Shown here: positions 56,689 to 62,927 of the stretch, piece after piece | Layout of the letters: the number at the start of each line of letters is the position of its first letter | Numbering within the stretch: position 1 is the stretch's first letter | Assembly (NCBI GenBank): GCA_965207065.1 | Contig: OZ242260.1 | Span: forward strand, 2,656,001-2,720,000 | DNA length: 64,000 bases | Direction of reading: 5' to 3' | Source of the DNA: a bacterium | GTDB lineage: Bacteria > UBA8248 | Notes under the pieces: generated by a model | Databases searched by the model: none | Seen by the model: only the letters and a program-made list of their open reading frames with translations | What the model was told of the DNA's origin: nothing | Position numbers and translations under genes: made by a program

Positions 56689-57474
56689 TCAGGGAGAAAA
56701 TCGCTGGAGAATGGCTTTTGCATGTACTCTAATTTCTGGTGTCCAGTTCTGTTCCCAGTCTGTCAGCAACTCCCCATAGGTGCAGGCAATAAATTTCACC
56801 TCGTCTTCCATTACTTCTTTTCTGAAAATATCGATTTCCTCCTTGTGATTAATTTTGGTTATTTCGTCGATGGGTCTGCCATTTTTTGGCCAACACTCGG
56901 GTTCTGCATAAATATAGAATAGGGTGGCCTTTTGGTCTTCGAATTTGCGCCCCGGTTGGATTTGCGTTCTCAAAGCAAAGGCGTGTTTGACGAGTTGGGT
57001 CGCGTCGAGATGCTCAAAGTGTCTTTCGTTTTTATGAAGCTTGTCTCTTACGTTCTCGTAACCCTTCATACGCTTGCCCCAAACTTGCCTCCAATACGCA
57101 CACGAAAAAGAAGCTTTCTTGTTTCTTCGAAAAGGCTCGAACCTTTTTGACTCGATGCCGATGAGTTCAGATGGCGTGATAACCAGGGCATCCAGAACGG
57201 GGTGGCGGCCGCCACGCCAAGGGAAGCGCACTGTCTTCTCAAGAGCCAACGAAACCGCTGATCCTTTCCATTGGTCACATTCAGGAAGGAGGGGCAGATC
57301 CCACGCTCGATTGAGAAAGAACCCAAAGGTATTGGCCGCGAGCGCGGCGGAGGATTCCGGACTGTCAAACTTCCCGCTCTCTATTTCGTTACCTGCTGCG
57401 GCGTTGAATATTAATTCGATTTCTTCACCCGGAACGCCGGGCAGCCATCTTTGGGAACTGTTAATTGTTGTCAA
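56689..57474 (-). CDS. Putative PD-(D/E)xK restriction-endonuclease-like protein (PGN_0703-like), AT-richer
   Basis: SSAAL..N.F, LE, D, IESK..EP, QL.KH motifs; TTG start. Confidence 0.55.
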   Translation of the reverse strand: MTTINSSQRWLPGVPGEEIELIFNAAAGNEIESGKFDSPESSAALAANTFGFFLNRAWDLPLLPECDQWKGSAVSLALEKTVRFPWRGGRHPVLDALVITPSELIGIESKRFEPFRRNKKASFSCAYWRQVWGKRMKGYENVRDKLHKNERHFEHLDATQLVKHAFALRTQIQPGRKFEDQKATLFYIYAEPECWPKNGRPIDEITKINHKEEIDIFRKEVMEDEVKFIACTYGELLTDWEQNWTPEIRVHAKAILQRFSP

Positions 57475-57590: not shown

Positions 57591-58871
57591 TTACGCCTTC
57601 ACCTTCTCGTTGGCGAGGTGCGCAATGGAGGAGGCGAGGATTTCTGCGCCCTTCACCATGTCGTCAAAGTGCGTGAACTCCTCGGGCGTGTGCGAGAGCC
57701 CGCCCACCGAGGGAATGAACACCATTCCGATCGGGCATATCGCCGCCATGCGGCAGGCGTCGTGCACCCCGCCGCTCGATAGCGTGAGCGCGGCGTGTCC
57801 CGTTTCTTTGGAAGCGCGGCGGAGCGCCTTTTGAATGTTGTTGGAGGTGGGGCAGACGGCCAGCTTCTTCACGTCGGAGAGGCGGCCTTCGACGCCCCGC
57901 TCCTTCTCGATGGCGGCAAGCGTTTTTTCCATCCGCGCGAGGGTGCGCTCCATCACCGCCTGGCTTCTGCTTCTGAGATCGAAAGAAAGCCTCGCCCCTC
58001 CGGGCACGATGGACACCCATCCCGGGAGCGCTTCCATCTCCCCGAAGGTGATTGTTACGCGCTGAGACTCGGGCGCGCGGTTCACGAAGTTCTCCATGCG
58101 CACCATGAAGTCCGCCGCCGCGATTCCGGCGTCCTTTCGGTAGGGCATGGGCTGTCCGCCCGAGTGTGCCGTGACGCCAGTGAAGTGAACCTCGCCCCTC
58201 GTGTATCCCACCACCCTGTCCACGATGCCGATGGGTATCTCGGCCGATTCGAGCACCGGCCCCTGTTCGATGTGAAGCTCCAGAAAGGCCTTGAGTGAAC
58301 CGTCTTTAATCCGGCACGAGCGTACGCGCGCAGGATTGCCGCCCACCGCCTCGATGGCCTCATAGAGTGATTTTCCCGTAGGCGGATGCTCCGTGTTCTT
58401 CAAATCTTTCACGCCCACGACACCCGTGGCGACGCTGCTGCCGAACACCGTCATCCCGCATGCGGATTCCTCACCCACGAAGGCCATCACCTCGATGGGG
58501 TGATCGTGGGCGAGTCCCGTTTCGTCGATGCGCCGGAACGCTTCGAGAGCAGTGAGCACGCCCGCGGGGCCGTCGAAGCGTCCGCCCGGGCTCTGGGAAT
58601 CGAGATGCGAGCCGGCCATCACGGCGGGAAGTCCGCGCACGCGGCCCTCTTTTCGTCCATACAGATTCCCCACGGCGTCGACCCGCGTCTCAAGGCCCGC
58701 GTTCTTCATCCAGCCCTCGACGAGGTCTCGCACCTCGTTGTAGACCGGCGTGAAGGCCACGCGGTCGAGGCCCGTTTTTCCGTATTTGCCGATCTTCGCC
58801 TGGGCGTTGAACTCACGCCTCATGCGGGCGCGGTTCGCGCGGAGGGGAAACGTTTCTTTAGACGGCATCAA
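57591..58871 (-). CDS. Zn-dependent amidohydrolase (allantoate amidohydrolase/N-carbamoylase, M20 family)
   Basis: GSHLDS, GRFDG..GV, EES, ELHIEQGPVLE, HDA, SH.PEE. Confidence 0.92.
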   Translation of the reverse strand: MMPSKETFPLRANRARMRREFNAQAKIGKYGKTGLDRVAFTPVYNEVRDLVEGWMKNAGLETRVDAVGNLYGRKEGRVRGLPAVMAGSHLDSQSPGGRFDGPAGVLTALEAFRRIDETGLAHDHPIEVMAFVGEESACGMTVFGSSVATGVVGVKDLKNTEHPPTGKSLYEAIEAVGGNPARVRSCRIKDGSLKAFLELHIEQGPVLESAEIPIGIVDRVVGYTRGEVHFTGVTAHSGGQPMPYRKDAGIAAADFMVRMENFVNRAPESQRVTITFGEMEALPGWVSIVPGGARLSFDLRSRSQAVMERTLARMEKTLAAIEKERGVEGRLSDVKKLAVCPTSNNIQKALRRASKETGHAALTLSSGGVHDACRMAAICPIGMVFIPSVGGLSHTPEEFTHFDDMVKGAEILASSIAHLANEKVKA

Positions 58872-58898
58872 GCGGCCTCCTTGGAAAACAAAACTGGA

Positions 58899-59651
58899 CT
58901 AAAAGAGATCCTTTGGCACAGGCACTTCTTCGTAGTCTTCGGGTTGCAGCGGGTTATCCGGCACTATCTCCAGCATCTCGAAATAGTGGTAGGTTTGCCG
59001 TAGGTGCTGGAAGGCGTGCCCGAGCGAGAGAATCATCAACTCATGTACGGTAATGGGTCCCATATAGCTCGACACTTTTTTGGCGAGCGCCTCGCCGCCG
59101 TCTGTCAGAAAGTCGGTGAGCTTGGCCTGAATTTCATCCCCATAGGCGCAGATATCTTCGTTGGTATCATAATCGTTCGCCATCGTTTCATACCGCCGCA
59201 CCATATCTTCGGTGTACTCTCCCGATGCGTGAGTCTGCATCACGAGGTCCGGACGCTCGAAGCTGTGCCATGTGAGCTGGCGAAGCGTGCGGGGTCTGCC
59301 GGGGGATACCCAGTCGAGCGTTTCGTATGGAATCTGGCGGATCACGCGGCGAAAGGCGTCGAACACCATCTCGAAATAGTGGAGCATTTTTTCAGACGAG
59401 AGGGGACCGGCGCCTTCCTGTTCGATGTCAAAGGCCTCGCGAAGGGCATCCACGTCGTAGCCCACTACCACATTTTCTCCGCGCACGGCGACGGGCAGGG
59501 CCTTGATACCCAGCGCCTTGAGTTCCGCCTGGGCTTCGGCGTCGTTCGTGCAGTCTCTGTTGACGACTTCCAGACCGCTGGACGAGAGAAACTCTCTCGT
59601 AAGGGCGCAGGTGTATCAGCCGTGCCGCGTGTAGACTTTGACAGCTTCCAT
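58899..59651 (-). CDS. Probable selenoprotein: glutaredoxin (UxxC)-DinB fusion, 250 aa
   Basis: ATG 59651 after GGAG; MEAVKVYTRHG-UGA-YTC continues in frame into ORF 58899-59486; Grx-like LP and VVGYD; DinB-type His residues (WH, H...H). Confidence 0.8.
59582..59600 (-). promoter_or_regulatory. Putative bacterial SECIS hairpin
   Basis: ACGAGAGA-GTT-TCTCTCGT stem begins 15 nt after the in-frame UGA (59616-59618); loop starts with G. Confidence 0.65.
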
Positions 59652-59824
59652 CGATTTTCTCCCCGATGAGCGCGAAAGTGATTTTTTATGGGCGAATCAT
59701 ACCAAAACGATTGGGGTGAGAAAAACTGCCTCGTGCGCTTTGGCGAACAAGCCCGCGTGTTTTACTATCCCGTGAGTTGCGGTGTGCTCGGTTTGAAGTG
59801 TTGACCTTGAACAAGGGAACTCCA

Positions 59825-61351
59825 ATGCCTAGATGGTTCGTGAAGGGTGATATCGACGGCTTTTTCGGCCTGTGGATGGACAACCTCATCAATCTTCTGC
59901 TCATCGTGAGTTTCTTGAAAGGGTTGCTGGGTTTTCCCGAGTCACTAATATTCGGGCGCGTATTGCCCGCTGCGGCCCTGAGTCTTCTGGGGGGCAACCT
60001 TTTCTATACTTGGCAGGCGCGGCGTCTGGCCGTACGCGAAGGCCGAGACGATGTGACCGCCATGCCTTACGGCCTCAACACGGTGACGCTGTTTGCGTTC
60101 ATCTTTTTCGTCATGCTGCCCGTCAAGCTCAAGACCGGAAGCGCCGAAGCGGCCTGGCAGGCAGGTCTGGCGGCCTGTTTCGTGAGCGGGGTGATCGAGA
60201 CAGTCGGTGCGCTGGTGGGCGGGTGGATCAGGCGGGTCGCGCCAAGGGCCGCTCTGCTCTCCGCACTTGGAGGCATCGCGCTCACTTTCATTGCGATGGA
60301 TTTCGCATTCAGAATCTGGGAGAATCCGCTCCTCTCCATGGTGCCCCTGGGAATCATCCTGGTCCATTATTTCGGCGGATTCAGATTTCCCTTCGGCGTG
60401 CCGGGTGGCCTCGTAGCGGTGGCGTTGGGAGTGGTTCTCTCCGCTGTCATCAAGGGGTTTCCGGTCGGTATCCCGGCGCCTGTAGGGCTGGCGCTTCCAT
60501 CCTCCGCCCTCGGGCCTTTGTCTGACGCTCTTTTCGGTCCGCTGGCCTGGGACTACCTCGCGGTTTCCATCCCCATGGGTCTGATGACGCTGGTGGGCAG
60601 CCTGATGTGCCTGGAAAGCGCAGCTGCGGCCGGTGACAGTTACGACACGGGTAGCTCCCTCGCGGTGAACGGCGCGGGATCGCTTCTCGCGGCGTGCTTG
60701 GGGAGTTGTTTTCCCACGACGATATATATCGGACATCCGGCCTGGAAGAGGGTTGGGGCGCGCGCTGGTTACAGCGCCTTGAACGGGACGGTGATGACGG
60801 TTCTCTGCTTTACTGGTTCGATAGCGGCGCTTTCGAAAATCATTCCGGGCGAGGCGCTCTTCGCCCTCATGCTCTGGATCGGGGTGATGATGCTCACCCA
60901 GGCATTTCAGGCTGTGCCGAAGAACCACGGGCCGGCCGTGGCTATCGGTTTGATACCCGCCATCGCCGCCTGGGGTTTGCTGATGGTGGAATCCTCCCTC
61001 AGGGGAGCGGGCACAACCTTGTGGAAAGTGGGACAGGACGCGTTCGCCAAAGTGGGTTTTCACCTGGTGGGGATGGTTACCTTGGAGCGTGGATTTCTAT
61101 TTACGTCCATCATCCTTACGGCCATCGTAGCGAAACTGGTAGATAAGGAACCGAAACAGGCGGGAGGATGGGCGTTGGCCGGCGCGGTATTGAGCTGGTT
61201 CGGGATAATTCACGCCTGGAGAATCACGCCCGGCGGCGTCGTTAGTTTTTTCGGCTGGGGGGCGGCGCCTGGCATAGCTGTCGGTTACTTGCTTATCGCG
61301 GTCTTGTTTTTCTTGTTCGGGCTGAAACCCTTGGATAAAGTAACATCTTGA
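59825..61351 (+). CDS. NCS2/AzgA-like nucleobase permease
   Basis: GD.DGFFGL..DN, TA.PYG.N, TIYIGHP.WK..GAR.GYS; many TM helices. Confidence 0.82.
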   Translation: MPRWFVKGDIDGFFGLWMDNLINLLLIVSFLKGLLGFPESLIFGRVLPAAALSLLGGNLFYTWQARRLAVREGRDDVTAMPYGLNTVTLFAFIFFVMLPVKLKTGSAEAAWQAGLAACFVSGVIETVGALVGGWIRRVAPRAALLSALGGIALTFIAMDFAFRIWENPLLSMVPLGIILVHYFGGFRFPFGVPGGLVAVALGVVLSAVIKGFPVGIPAPVGLALPSSALGPLSDALFGPLAWDYLAVSIPMGLMTLVGSLMCLESAAAAGDSYDTGSSLAVNGAGSLLAACLGSCFPTTIYIGHPAWKRVGARAGYSALNGTVMTVLCFTGSIAALSKIIPGEALFALMLWIGVMMLTQAFQAVPKNHGPAVAIGLIPAIAAWGLLMVESSLRGAGTTLWKVGQDAFAKVGFHLVGMVTLERGFLFTSIILTAIVAKLVDKEPKQAGGWALAGAVLSWFGIIHAWRITPGGVVSFFGWGAAPGIAVGYLLIAVLFFLFGLKPLDKVTS

Positions 61352-61406: not shown

Positions 61407-62927
61407 ATGAAGATGCAAAATGAGTCGGTATTTGATTTGGTATCCATCGGTGGGGGTGTCGGCGGTCTGGTGGCGTCCGTTGGGGCTGCCCAACTGGGGG
61501 CCAAAGCCGCGCTCGTGGAGAAGGCGAAGCTCGGCGGAGATTGCCTGAACTATGGGTGCGTGCCTTCGAAAGGTCTTATCCGCTCGGCGCGGCTTGCTGC
61601 GCAGGCGCGCTCGATGCCCGAGTTCGGGATTGACGTGAGCGACGTGCGGGTCGATTTTCCCCGTGTCATGAAGCGGATGAAGGCGGCCCAGGCCCACATC
61701 GGCGAGCATGATGCGCCAGAGCGTTTCGAGGGCATGGGAATTGAGGTGATCTTCGGAGATGGCGCTTTCACCGGTCCCGATACGTTTCAGATTGGGGACA
61801 GGACGCTGCGGGCCAAGCGGTTTTTGCTGTCCATGGGCAGCTCTCCCTTCGTGCCGCCCATCGCCGGTCTCGATAGCGTGCCCTATCTCACGAACGAGAC
61901 CGTTTTCGATTTGGAGGAGTTGCCGAGACGCCTGGTTGTGCTGGGAGCGGGACCGATAGGACTGGAATTGTCACAGGCGTTTCAGCAACTCGGCGCAGAG
62001 GTGGAAGTGCTGCAAAGCGCACCTAAGCTCTTGCCGAGACTCGATAAGGAAATGGCTGAAATTCTGGCCGATTCCTTGACGGAATCCGGTCTCAAACTCC
62101 ATTTCAACGTGAACACGCAGAGAGTCGAGAAACGAGGGGAAGAGATTTTTTTAGAGGCCGATACGCCGTCTGGAAAAAGGGAGTGGGTGTGCGATCAACT
62201 GCTCATTGCGACTGGACGATCGCCCAACGTGGGTGGGATGGACCTGGAGAAGGCTGGCGTGATTTACACCCCGCACGGTGTGGAGACGGATGAATATCTT
62301 CAAACCGCGAATCCGCGCATCTTCGCCGCAGGCGATATCAGGGGCCAGTATCTCTTTACCCACATGGCGGAGTATGAGGCGGGTGTGGCGCTCAGGAACA
62401 TGCTCTTCAGCGCGCCATTTGGCATCTCGCTCCCGTTTCTGAAGAAGAAAACGAACTATGACGCCGTGCCGTGGACGATCTATACCACACCCGAGGCGGC
62501 GCATGTCGGTATGAGCGAAGCTGACGCCGAAGCGGCATTGGGGGCGAATCGCATCCAAGTGTTTCGCTTTCCGATGAACCGTGTGGATCGCGCCGTCCTG
62601 GACGGGGAAACGGAAGGAATCTGCAAGGTCGTGTGCGACGAGAAGGGAAGGCTCGTGGGAACTGATCTGGTCGGGCCAGCAGCGGGCGAGATATTACACG
62701 AGTTCGTGCTGGCCGTCCGCAAGAAGATGCACATCAAGGAGGTGGTGGATACGGTTCACGTCTATCCCACTCTGGCGCAGGTGAACAAGAGGGTGGCGGG
62801 TCGATATTATGCCGAAAGGCTCTTCACGCCGGCCTTCAGGAAGAAAATGCAACGCTTGTTCGGGCTTAAGGGTAGCTTGGAAGTGACCGACCCTGCTGAT
62901 CTCAACGGGCACGGCGCGGAGGAGTAG
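61407..62927 (+). CDS. FAD-dependent pyridine nucleotide-disulfide oxidoreductase (LpdA/MerA-like)
   Basis: G.G..G, GGDCLNYGCVPSK, G.GPIG.E, GD, HVYPT; no C-terminal Cys-Cys. Confidence 0.9.
   Translation: MKMQNESVFDLVSIGGGVGGLVASVGAAQLGAKAALVEKAKLGGDCLNYGCVPSKGLIRSARLAAQARSMPEFGIDVSDVRVDFPRVMKRMKAAQAHIGEHDAPERFEGMGIEVIFGDGAFTGPDTFQIGDRTLRAKRFLLSMGSSPFVPPIAGLDSVPYLTNETVFDLEELPRRLVVLGAGPIGLELSQAFQQLGAEVEVLQSAPKLLPRLDKEMAEILADSLTESGLKLHFNVNTQRVEKRGEEIFLEADTPSGKREWVCDQLLIATGRSPNVGGMDLEKAGVIYTPHGVETDEYLQTANPRIFAAGDIRGQYLFTHMAEYEAGVALRNMLFSAPFGISLPFLKKKTNYDAVPWTIYTTPEAAHVGMSEADAEAALGANRIQVFRFPMNRVDRAVLDGETEGICKVVCDEKGRLVGTDLVGPAAGEILHEFVLAVRKKMHIKEVVDTVHVYPTLAQVNKRVAGRYYAERLFTPAFRKKMQRLFGLKGSLEVTDPADLNGHGAEE

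Follow-up and report, generated by a model that had tools for sequence, protein, structure and literature searches.

A glutaredoxin-DinB gene with an in-frame UGA

The 64,000-nucleotide stretch of DNA analysed here (the window) covers positions 2,656,001 to 2,720,000 of contig OZ242260.1, the single 4.48-Mb contig of a 96% complete genome of a UBA8248 bacterium (assembly GCA_965207065.1). On its minus strand, between 59651 and 58899, lies a gene which, judging from comparison with its homologs, we can say with high confidence to be a real selenoprotein gene whose product joins a glutaredoxin domain to a DinB-type domain (Table 1). From the start codon ATG (59651-59649) the reading frame is open to TAG (58901-58899) except for one in-frame stop, a TGA at codon 12, and read-through gives a product of 250 residues that begins with MEAVKVYTRHG-U-YTCALTREFL and ends with PKDLF, with no second UGA. 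Under translation table 11 the longest open reading frame (ORF) is of 195 residues and starts at GTG 59486, inside the glutaredoxin domain. A GGAG-type motif precedes the ATG in nearly all of 40 homologous sequences.

The original prediction had proposed this start with its ribosome-binding site (RBS), a single in-frame UGA at the first Cys of a CxxC-type motif, a 250-residue read-through sequence continuous with the 195-residue ORF, and an 8-bp hairpin with a G-starting loop 15 nt further downstream as the candidate selenocysteine insertion sequence (SECIS); all of these were recovered at the same positions. The His-containing motifs that it had pointed out, LTWH (H129) and GHAFQH (H212 and H216), are also present, and its glutaredoxin and DinB-type domain calls hold, Pfam scores being above cut-off for both and Foldseek agreeing.

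Table 1. Predicted selenoprotein gene, its features and neighbouring genes (positions are those of the window; Sec, selenocysteine)
Feature	Position	Strand	Remarks
Full coding sequence of the predicted selenoprotein	58899..59651	minus	250 residues and TAG stop, with UGA read as Sec
RBS, GGGGAG	59659..59664	minus	7 nt upstream of the ATG
UGA codon 12, predicted Sec residue U12	59616..59618	minus	first position of U-Y-T-C
Codon of C15, second (putatively resolving) Cys of UxxC	59607..59609	minus	invariant in 21/21 (Sec alignment) and 33/33 (Sec/Cys alignment)
Candidate SECIS hairpin	59582..59600	minus	perfect 8-bp stem: arm ACGAGAGA (59600-59593), apical loop GUU (59592-59590), arm UCUCUCGU (59589-59582); based on pairing, energy and the bSECIS criteria
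Glutaredoxin/NrdH-like thioredoxin-fold domain, residues 4-78	59418..59642	minus	PF00462; phmmer and Foldseek matches to 7c10
DinB_2/YfiT-like four-helix-bundle domain, residues 93-219	58995..59375	minus	PF12867; Foldseek
Codon of H129 (LTWH), first His of the putative metal triad	59265..59267	minus	invariant in 21 Sec forms; at least 90% in 33 forms
Codons of H212-H216 (G-H-A-F-Q-H), second and third His of the putative triad	59004..59018	minus	conservation
M20 amidase, hydantoinase/carbamoylase family	57591..58871	minus	TIGR01879, 348.8 bits vs 204; Pfam Peptidase_M20
524-residue multi-pass membrane protein, putative permease	59777..61351	plus	divergent from the selenoprotein gene
Class-I pyridine-nucleotide disulfide oxidoreductase	61407..62927	plus	Pyr_redox_2, 182 bits; NF004991, 496 bits vs cut-off 620
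261-residue gene, 'Restriction Endonuclease associating with ARP' (PF22558)	56689..57474	minus	44 bits; just downstream of the amidase

Residues 4-56 of the read-through product match the Pfam Glutaredoxin model (PF00462) with 33.5 bits for a cut-off of 22.9 and, after a linker of about 10 residues that separates the two domains, residues 93-219 give a marginal match to DinB_2 (PF12867; 25.1 bits vs 24.8). When the whole genome was searched with DinB_2, nine matches were obtained, the one at this place scoring 26.6 bits. No NCBIfam model reaches its cut-off for the 250-residue protein.

An AlphaFold2 model built on 21 full-length homologs (predicted local distance difference test, pLDDT, 90.6; predicted template-modelling score, pTM, 0.83) was split by Foldseek into a DinB/YfiT bundle and a glutaredoxin/NrdH fold. 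Matches of the DinB part, at probability 1.00, are 6iz2 (target TM-score, TMt, 0.83), 2p1a (0.75-0.78) and 1rxq (YfiT; 0.69), to which are added 8f5v, the mycothiol S-transferase of M. tuberculosis, and 2nsf, a mycothiol-dependent maleylpyruvate isomerase (MDMPI). The glutaredoxin part, modelled as beta-alpha-beta-alpha-beta-beta-alpha, matches cGrx1 (7c10/7c12) with TMt of 0.89-0.90 and 39-41% identity over ca. 75 residues; phmmer aligned 7c10 with residues 4-78 (E 1.4e-10) and placed U12 opposite the first Cys of CPHC. With a profile score above threshold, and with U12-x-x-C15 and P53 of the cis-Pro loop invariant, this domain has the features of a glutaredoxin, in which the alignments identify Sec as the N-terminal, attacking residue of a glutaredoxin/NrdH-type U-x-x-C motif. 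The DinB bundle appears to keep a putative three-His metal site (H129, H212 and H216) together with a set of invariant Arg/Tyr residues. In the sequence alignments, the triad is invariant in the 21-sequence Sec clade and nearly so across the family.

Decoding of the UGA codon and the downstream hairpin

A species-level scan (one genome per species) yielded 40 related loci from Nitrospinota, Tectomicrobia, one Acidobacteriota metagenome-assembled genome (MAG) and three Thermodesulfobacteriota contigs, and tblastn-type matches cover residues 1-250 in 38 of them. Leaving out locus L059, which is cut by a contig end, the homologous codon is TGA in all 39 loci that include the N-terminus, within G-U-[YF]-[TS]-C, and Cys in none. 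The second sample consisted of the window's own genome and 40 relatives: a match occurs in 28 of these 41 genomes, among them all 24 other genomes searched in the same taxonomic family, and exactly one TGA is present in each of the 26 full-length matches. Because the TGA is found in 39 independent assemblies, an assembly error is ruled out.

Upstream of the UGA, conservation is at the protein level. In the 11 codons that precede it, all 40 sequences share M1, V4, Y7, R9 and G11, and third positions are the most variable, with ten out of ten varying in codons 2-11 vs six first and five second positions. Synonymous differences upstream of the UGA number 1805 vs 750 non-synonymous ones, and residues 1-55 are kept in frame, with synonymous-site variation, across 39 loci. 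The genome also encodes the corresponding machinery, namely selA (579 bits) with an adjacent selB (386.1 bits), selD (334.5 bits) and tRNA-Sec (75.9 bits), all above curated cut-offs. In selD, too, an in-frame TGA is present, at the active site (AGG-U-GSK), SelD thus being itself a selenoprotein; at G000:C1:543537-544499 (locus L011), a strong stem-loop (-25.3 kcal/mol over 60 nt) directly follows the UGA of selD. The checks proposed together with the original prediction, which concerned the Sec machinery, the residue found in homologs (TGA in the related loci, Cys in distant ones; see below), a possible assembly error and the conservation upstream of the UGA, have thus all turned out in its favour. 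UGA codon 12 almost certainly encodes Sec in the active site, and the comparative data strongly support its decoding by SelB and Sec-tRNA(Sec), directed by the hairpin 15 nt downstream.

Were the UGA a true stop, the locus would encode a leader peptide of 11 residues and, from a start of its own, a shorter protein of the DinB family, which is how databases annotate it. This is very improbable. It would agree with the 195-residue table 11 ORF from GTG 59486, with public records that name the homologs 'DinB family protein' (190-233 residues) and with a hairpin that is not significant on the single sequence. Yet the called starts vary among homologs (profile positions 17-63) and fall inside a well-folded glutaredoxin domain, the RBS precedes ATG 59651 and not GTG 59486, the Cys forms are full-length, and both the conservation of residues 1-55 and the presence of the Sec machinery speak for read-through. 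Even less credence can be given to a UGA read as Trp or Gly (codes 4 or 25) or by near-cognate read-through: a W at the homologous codon in two database entries and WxxC in one representative indicate that some pipelines used code 4, but W or G at the nucleophilic CxxC position would be inactive where homologs have Cys, one codon only is affected (a single TGA in 26 of 26 full-length matches), 5 of the 39 homologous genes also end with TGA as their stop codon, and a dedicated tRNA-Sec, SelA, SelB and SelD exist together with a conserved hairpin at SECIS distance.

The bacterial SECIS model, as quoted in PMC13188914, has a loop of 3-9 nt with G in its first two positions, a stem of 4-16 bp, 16-37 nt from UGA to loop and a minimum free energy of -7.5 kcal/mol or lower. 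The hairpin of the window agrees on every count with these bSECIS criteria as they are quoted there (GUU loop, 8 bp, a UGA-to-loop spacing of 23 nt and, for the hairpin alone, -9.6 kcal/mol). Pairing was assessed on 34 distinct sequences and 8 pairs, that is 272 cells, of which 96.0% form a pair vs 33-71% after the 3' partners had been shifted by 1-3 columns; none of 500 shuffles reached the observed pairing. At pair 23-33, 26 sequences have G-C and 8 have A-U, a compensatory change, and at pair 24-32 there are 27 with A-U and 7 with G-U. The double change at pair 23-33 corresponds to an R-to-K replacement (AGA to AAA) that is always accompanied by a synonymous Leu change (CTC to CTT), and such a coupling is not required by protein selection alone. 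The A-U form occurs in AT-rich marine Nitrospinaceae and also in GC-rich Acidobacteriota and Thermodesulfobacteriota contigs.

Several points weigh against this interpretation. The fold of the 66-nt stretch taken as a single sequence is not beyond chance (z = -1.45, 18 of 200 shuffles folding equally well), so that the case for the hairpin rests on the comparison of homologs. The stem overlaps the codons of a conserved peptide, T-R/K-E-F-L-S, and most of its invariance could therefore be due to selection on the protein; moreover, the double change concerns one pair only, in 8 sequences of two lineages. Finally, contigs from RNA libraries cover parts of the gene and its surroundings (58729-58900, 58917-59067, 59107-59294, 59229-59410 and 59670-59800), with none across the UGA; they come from four runs, two of which are apparently one data set filed twice, strand and level are not readable, and DNA carry-over is possible. 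A scan of 59400-59720 against Rfam (E up to 10) gave two chance-level matches and no family at threshold.

Cysteine homologs, a second Sec branch and annotation

A profile of 21 Sec forms searched against 1.84 billion cluster representatives retrieved 3260 proteins with E-values of 1e-3 or lower, 412 of them at 1e-10 or lower. Among the best 150 of these representatives, from which the site counts were taken, 54 cover the active site (52 with CxxC, one with WxxC and one with SxxS), 86 are N-truncated, with called starts at profile positions 17-63 and never before the U/C position, and 10 are other fragments. The WxxC representative is a case of TGA translated as Trp. Cys forms typically read W-Q-P-G-C-[ST]-S-C-L-R. 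When 6 Sec and 27 Cys forms were aligned, the latter being 20-29% identical to the protein of the window, U/C12, C15, G48, P53, G198, H216 and R218 were invariant in all 33, and G11, K19, E20, R119, R121, H129, H212 and Q219 were conserved in at least 90%. In this alignment, U12 facing Cys in the homologs represents a classical Sec/Cys pairing, and the 250-residue protein belongs to a Sec-containing clade of a large, uncharacterised glutaredoxin-DinB fusion family that includes Cys forms too. Two representatives depart from the general organisation: P0171 (721 residues) carries the whole glutaredoxin-DinB module at residues 471-716 of a larger fusion, and P0183 has SxxS in place of CxxC.

A second, distant Sec branch was found with four N-truncated representatives, all starting with MKEFLS, whose scan against metagenome contigs returned 80 loci (L085-L164). 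The homologous codon is TGA in 78 of the 80 (W-Q-P-G-U-T-S-C-L-R), a count which, the queries having been picked for being truncated, bears on whether truncation marks a TGA and not on the frequency of Sec in the family; the remainder are one TGC (L113) and one aberrant locus. Some copies keep the ACGAAAGA/UCUUUCGU hairpin, the same as in the window, and in most there are two hairpins; in the second of these, the arms are GGUCC/GGAUC or GGCCC/GGGUC and the loop, GUG, lies ca. 37 nt from the UGA. In a quick maximum-likelihood tree of 75 hand-chosen rows (37 Sec and 38 Cys forms, a non-random sample with Shimodaira-Hasegawa-like approximate likelihood ratio, SH-aLRT, support only), the 21-member Sec clade of the window forms one group (support 100) with Cys forms as its sister (support 84), and parsimony counts 7 Sec/Cys changes, at least 4 of which are forced by well-supported branches. 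Such repeated exchange within one family, as suggested by this quick tree, is a natural experiment from which one may learn under what conditions the use of selenium is of advantage.

As had been foreseen, automated annotation truncates these proteins: of 43 database homologs, just two span the query from end to end, both with W at the Sec position, and the other 41 are without their active site. The NCBI Tectomicrobia orthologs are 224-residue proteins named 'DinB family protein', and the Cys forms are named 'glutaredoxin' or 'hypothetical protein'. Eight Cys forms were compared with NCBIfam and none of them had a model above cut-off; the same holds for the protein of the window, and the glutaredoxin-DinB family is without an NCBIfam model. 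The family is thus systematically mis-annotated, most records having lost the active site, and analyses of DinB domains overlook the redox partner fused to them. For this reason, the selenoproteomes of soil, marine and symbiont bacteria have probably been undercounted.

Sec-glutaredoxins and DinB transferases are each known, and a selenoprotein fusion of both is not in the inventories examined. The word DinB occurs nowhere in the main text of a 2026 review that tabulates prokaryotic selenoprotein families (PMC13188914), and our literature search found no paper linking selenoproteins to a DinB domain, although the family may be filed in BSepDB under 'Grx'. The BSepDB paper (PMC13326102) places 'Nitrospinota' MAGs of the UBA8248 type in the top ten organisms for selenoprotein content, at 48-54 genes per MAG; locus L049 stems from one of them.

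Relatives, neighbouring genes and candidate function

The N-terminal domain has in common with Sec-glutaredoxins and cGrx1 (7c10/7c12) the thioredoxin fold, the position of the U/CxxC motif and a Sec that would be the attacking residue; cGrx1 presumably derives from a natural selenoprotein, for which no confirming paper was found. Unlike these single-domain proteins of ca. 75-85 residues, the protein of the window adds a 170-residue C-terminal DinB domain, with U-Y/F-T/S-C as its motif. The best NCBIfam likenesses of the N-terminal domain are NrdH (TIGR02194, 38.9 bits) and YruB (TIGR02196, 44.4 bits), scores that lie below the respective cut-offs of 85.75 and 88.55 and do not place it in either family; NrdH-like folds (1h75, 4fiw and 4hs1) are among the Foldseek matches. 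NrdH and YruB redoxins are reduced by thioredoxin reductase rather than by glutathione. Such a reduction would suit the genome of the window, where canonical gshA and gshB were not found: gshA (PF04262) gave no match in this 96% complete genome, GCS2-type ligases not having been searched, and gshB gave only a sub-threshold one (73 vs 299 bits). Glutathione may nevertheless be present. In contrast to NrdH and YruB, the protein of the window has no link to a ribonucleotide reductase, contains Sec and is fused to DinB. Among the families tabulated in PMC13188914 as experimentally verified selenoproteins is Grx (PF00462, UxxC).

The UXX-star and HUGP/GUXX-star selenoproteins share the glutaredoxin-like fold and, for some of them, a G-U-x-x context. 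Membership was considered and rejected, with NF041212 scoring 38.4 vs 66, NF041114 16.0 vs 72 and NF045501 22.4 vs 325; the Sec of the Uxx-star families lies in a C-terminal U-x-x-stop, which is missing here. Separately, weak glutaredoxin-domain matches (27-37% identity over ca. 80 residues) were noted in the relatives G001, G011, G013, G017, G018, G020 and G023, on small frames that contain one or two TGAs; these frames, from the same genus and family, are possibly glutaredoxin-like selenoproteins of the Uxx-star type. Cysteine-type glutathione S-transferases (GSTs) such as Omega, Xi and Lambda, which are thiol-conjugate reductases/lyases, also place a thioredoxin-fold nucleophile beside an all-helical substrate domain, a likeness by analogy only. 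A GST-like global fold was rejected (full-length query TM-score, TMq, 0.24-0.35; root-mean-square deviation 10-17 A), the helical domain being of a different fold.

The C-terminal domain shares the four-helix-bundle fold with BstA/YfiT, mycothiol S-transferase and mycothiol-dependent maleylpyruvate isomerase, and its conserved H...HxxxH pattern appears to correspond to the three-His metal site of the superfamily as described in PMC10950700. Identity to solved DinB/YfiT members is 11-17%, with the marginal Pfam score given above. In contrast to the protein of the window, known members have neither redox domain nor Sec and use a free low-molecular-weight thiol. As presented in PMC10950700, the DinB/YfiT superfamily comprises homodimeric metalloenzymes that include bacillithiol and mycothiol S-transferases, and mycothiol conjugates are subsequently cleaved by an amidase, then exported.

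The neighbourhood was compared across 19 loci of the family. The M20 amidase gene starts 27 nt after the stop of the selenoprotein gene, with its own GGAGG, and is probably co-transcribed with it; a homolog lies directly downstream on the same strand in 11 of the 19 loci, down to 55% identity. The divergent gene for the 524-residue membrane protein, which remained without a match in Pfam and NCBIfam although E-values of up to 10 were admitted, has an upstream and divergent homolog in 8 of 19. Beyond it, the flavoprotein disulfide oxidoreductase (61407..62927) is a weak candidate reductase for the UxxC domain.

On the basis of these likenesses, the enzyme is probably a selenium-dependent, metal-assisted thiol transferase or reductase, in line with the redox or thiol-transfer role put forward in the original prediction. 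The course that we suggest for the reaction is tentative, with somewhat less than an even chance of being right as described. The metal of the DinB domain would hold a small thiol-reactive substrate, or a thiol conjugate, and polarise it, as happens in the S-transferases for bacillithiol and mycothiol; the tethered selenolate would then attack the bound substrate and C15 would resolve the adduct, leaving an intramolecular selenenylsulfide that a thioredoxin-reductase-type flavoenzyme, rather than glutathione, would recycle. The product might then be handled by the probably co-transcribed carbamoylase-family amidase and by the adjacent membrane protein. The amidase step would parallel mycothiol detoxification, in which S-transfer is followed by an amidase.

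Against such a function stand, in the first place, a DinB_2 score only 0.3 bits above the cut-off and the absence of the amidase from 8 of the 19 loci. The flavoprotein was rejected as a dedicated partner, since it lies close to the gene in no more than 3 of 19 loci, which all belong to a single genus. Members from other phyla adjoin GntR/FCD regulators and major facilitator superfamily (MFS) transporters, one locus of the 19 lies beside an egtB/egtD-like pair, and in the second branch a ChaC-like gamma-glutamylcyclotransferase is found in the neighbour cluster of 33 of 80 loci. As neighbours differ among loci, phyla and branches, there is no universal partner. With respect to individual loci, the ChaC-like gene at L147:2498-3331 (PF04752, 127 bits) belongs to a cluster found also in 32 other loci of the second branch and hints at a link of this branch to glutathione or gamma-glutamyl compounds. 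In the Thermodesulfobacteriota paralog L064 (L064:3309-5175), the convergent neighbours are a PF10017 histidine-specific methyltransferase (293 bits) and a gene with an FGE-sulfatase domain, interrupted by the end of the contig, which make up an egtD/egtB-like ergothioneine pair.

The selenoprotein might also be a plain disulfide reductase, an electron donor of the NrdH or glutaredoxin type in which DinB is only a docking or recognition module or a metal or redox sensor. We regard this as unlikely, though by no means negligible: the glutaredoxin domain is nearest to YruB/NrdH redoxins and to cGrx1, many DinB proteins are without known activity, several Foldseek matches are described as 'putative metal-binding protein', and no operon partner is common to the whole family. 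On the other hand, the DinB His triad and several Arg/Tyr residues are as strongly conserved as UxxC between Sec and Cys forms at 20-29% identity, which speaks for a site of catalysis or ligand binding and against a passive scaffold, and the fixed fusion together with the pTM of the model suggests that the two sites cooperate.

A role in histidine-derived thiol or selenol metabolism of the ergothioneine/selenoneine type, for instance in the removal or transfer of S or Se before an amidase step, is improbable. EgtB uses a DinB domain, paralog L064 adjoins the pair mentioned above, and the amidase of the window scores 367 bits with the ErtE model of ergothioneine catabolism. This last score is nevertheless below the 520-bit cut-off and exceeded by that of the generic allantoate amidohydrolase model (385 bits, itself below its cut-off of 399), the egtB-egtD-like adjacency is limited to 1 of 19 loci with convergent genes, and PF10017 (EgtD) has 0 matches in the 96% complete genome of the window, other ergothioneine-catabolic genes not having been searched.

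Returning to a metal-assisted thiol transferase or reductase, its features can be joined in one scheme which, taken as a whole, is distinctly unlikely to hold in every part. The U12 selenolate would swing into the His3-metal pocket of DinB as a built-in 'low-molecular-weight thiol', which would make the protein the first selenoenzyme of the DinB/S-transferase-like superfamily; it would act as a cofactor-independent reductase/lyase for thiol-reactive small molecules, be recycled via its Se-S bond and form with the amidase a mercapturate-like pathway in bacteria apparently without glutathione, within a family that would have switched between Sec and Cys at least four times and in which Sec forms, all of them concealed by mis-annotation, may account for over half of the sequence clusters. 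If true, selenium would be tied to a superfamily whose physiological substrates are largely unknown. The obligatory UxxC/CxxC fusion provides a concrete clue to the role of DinB metal sites.

The last gene of this neighbourhood, the PF22558 gene located downstream of the amidase, does not occur in L041 but is present in the closest relative, L025.

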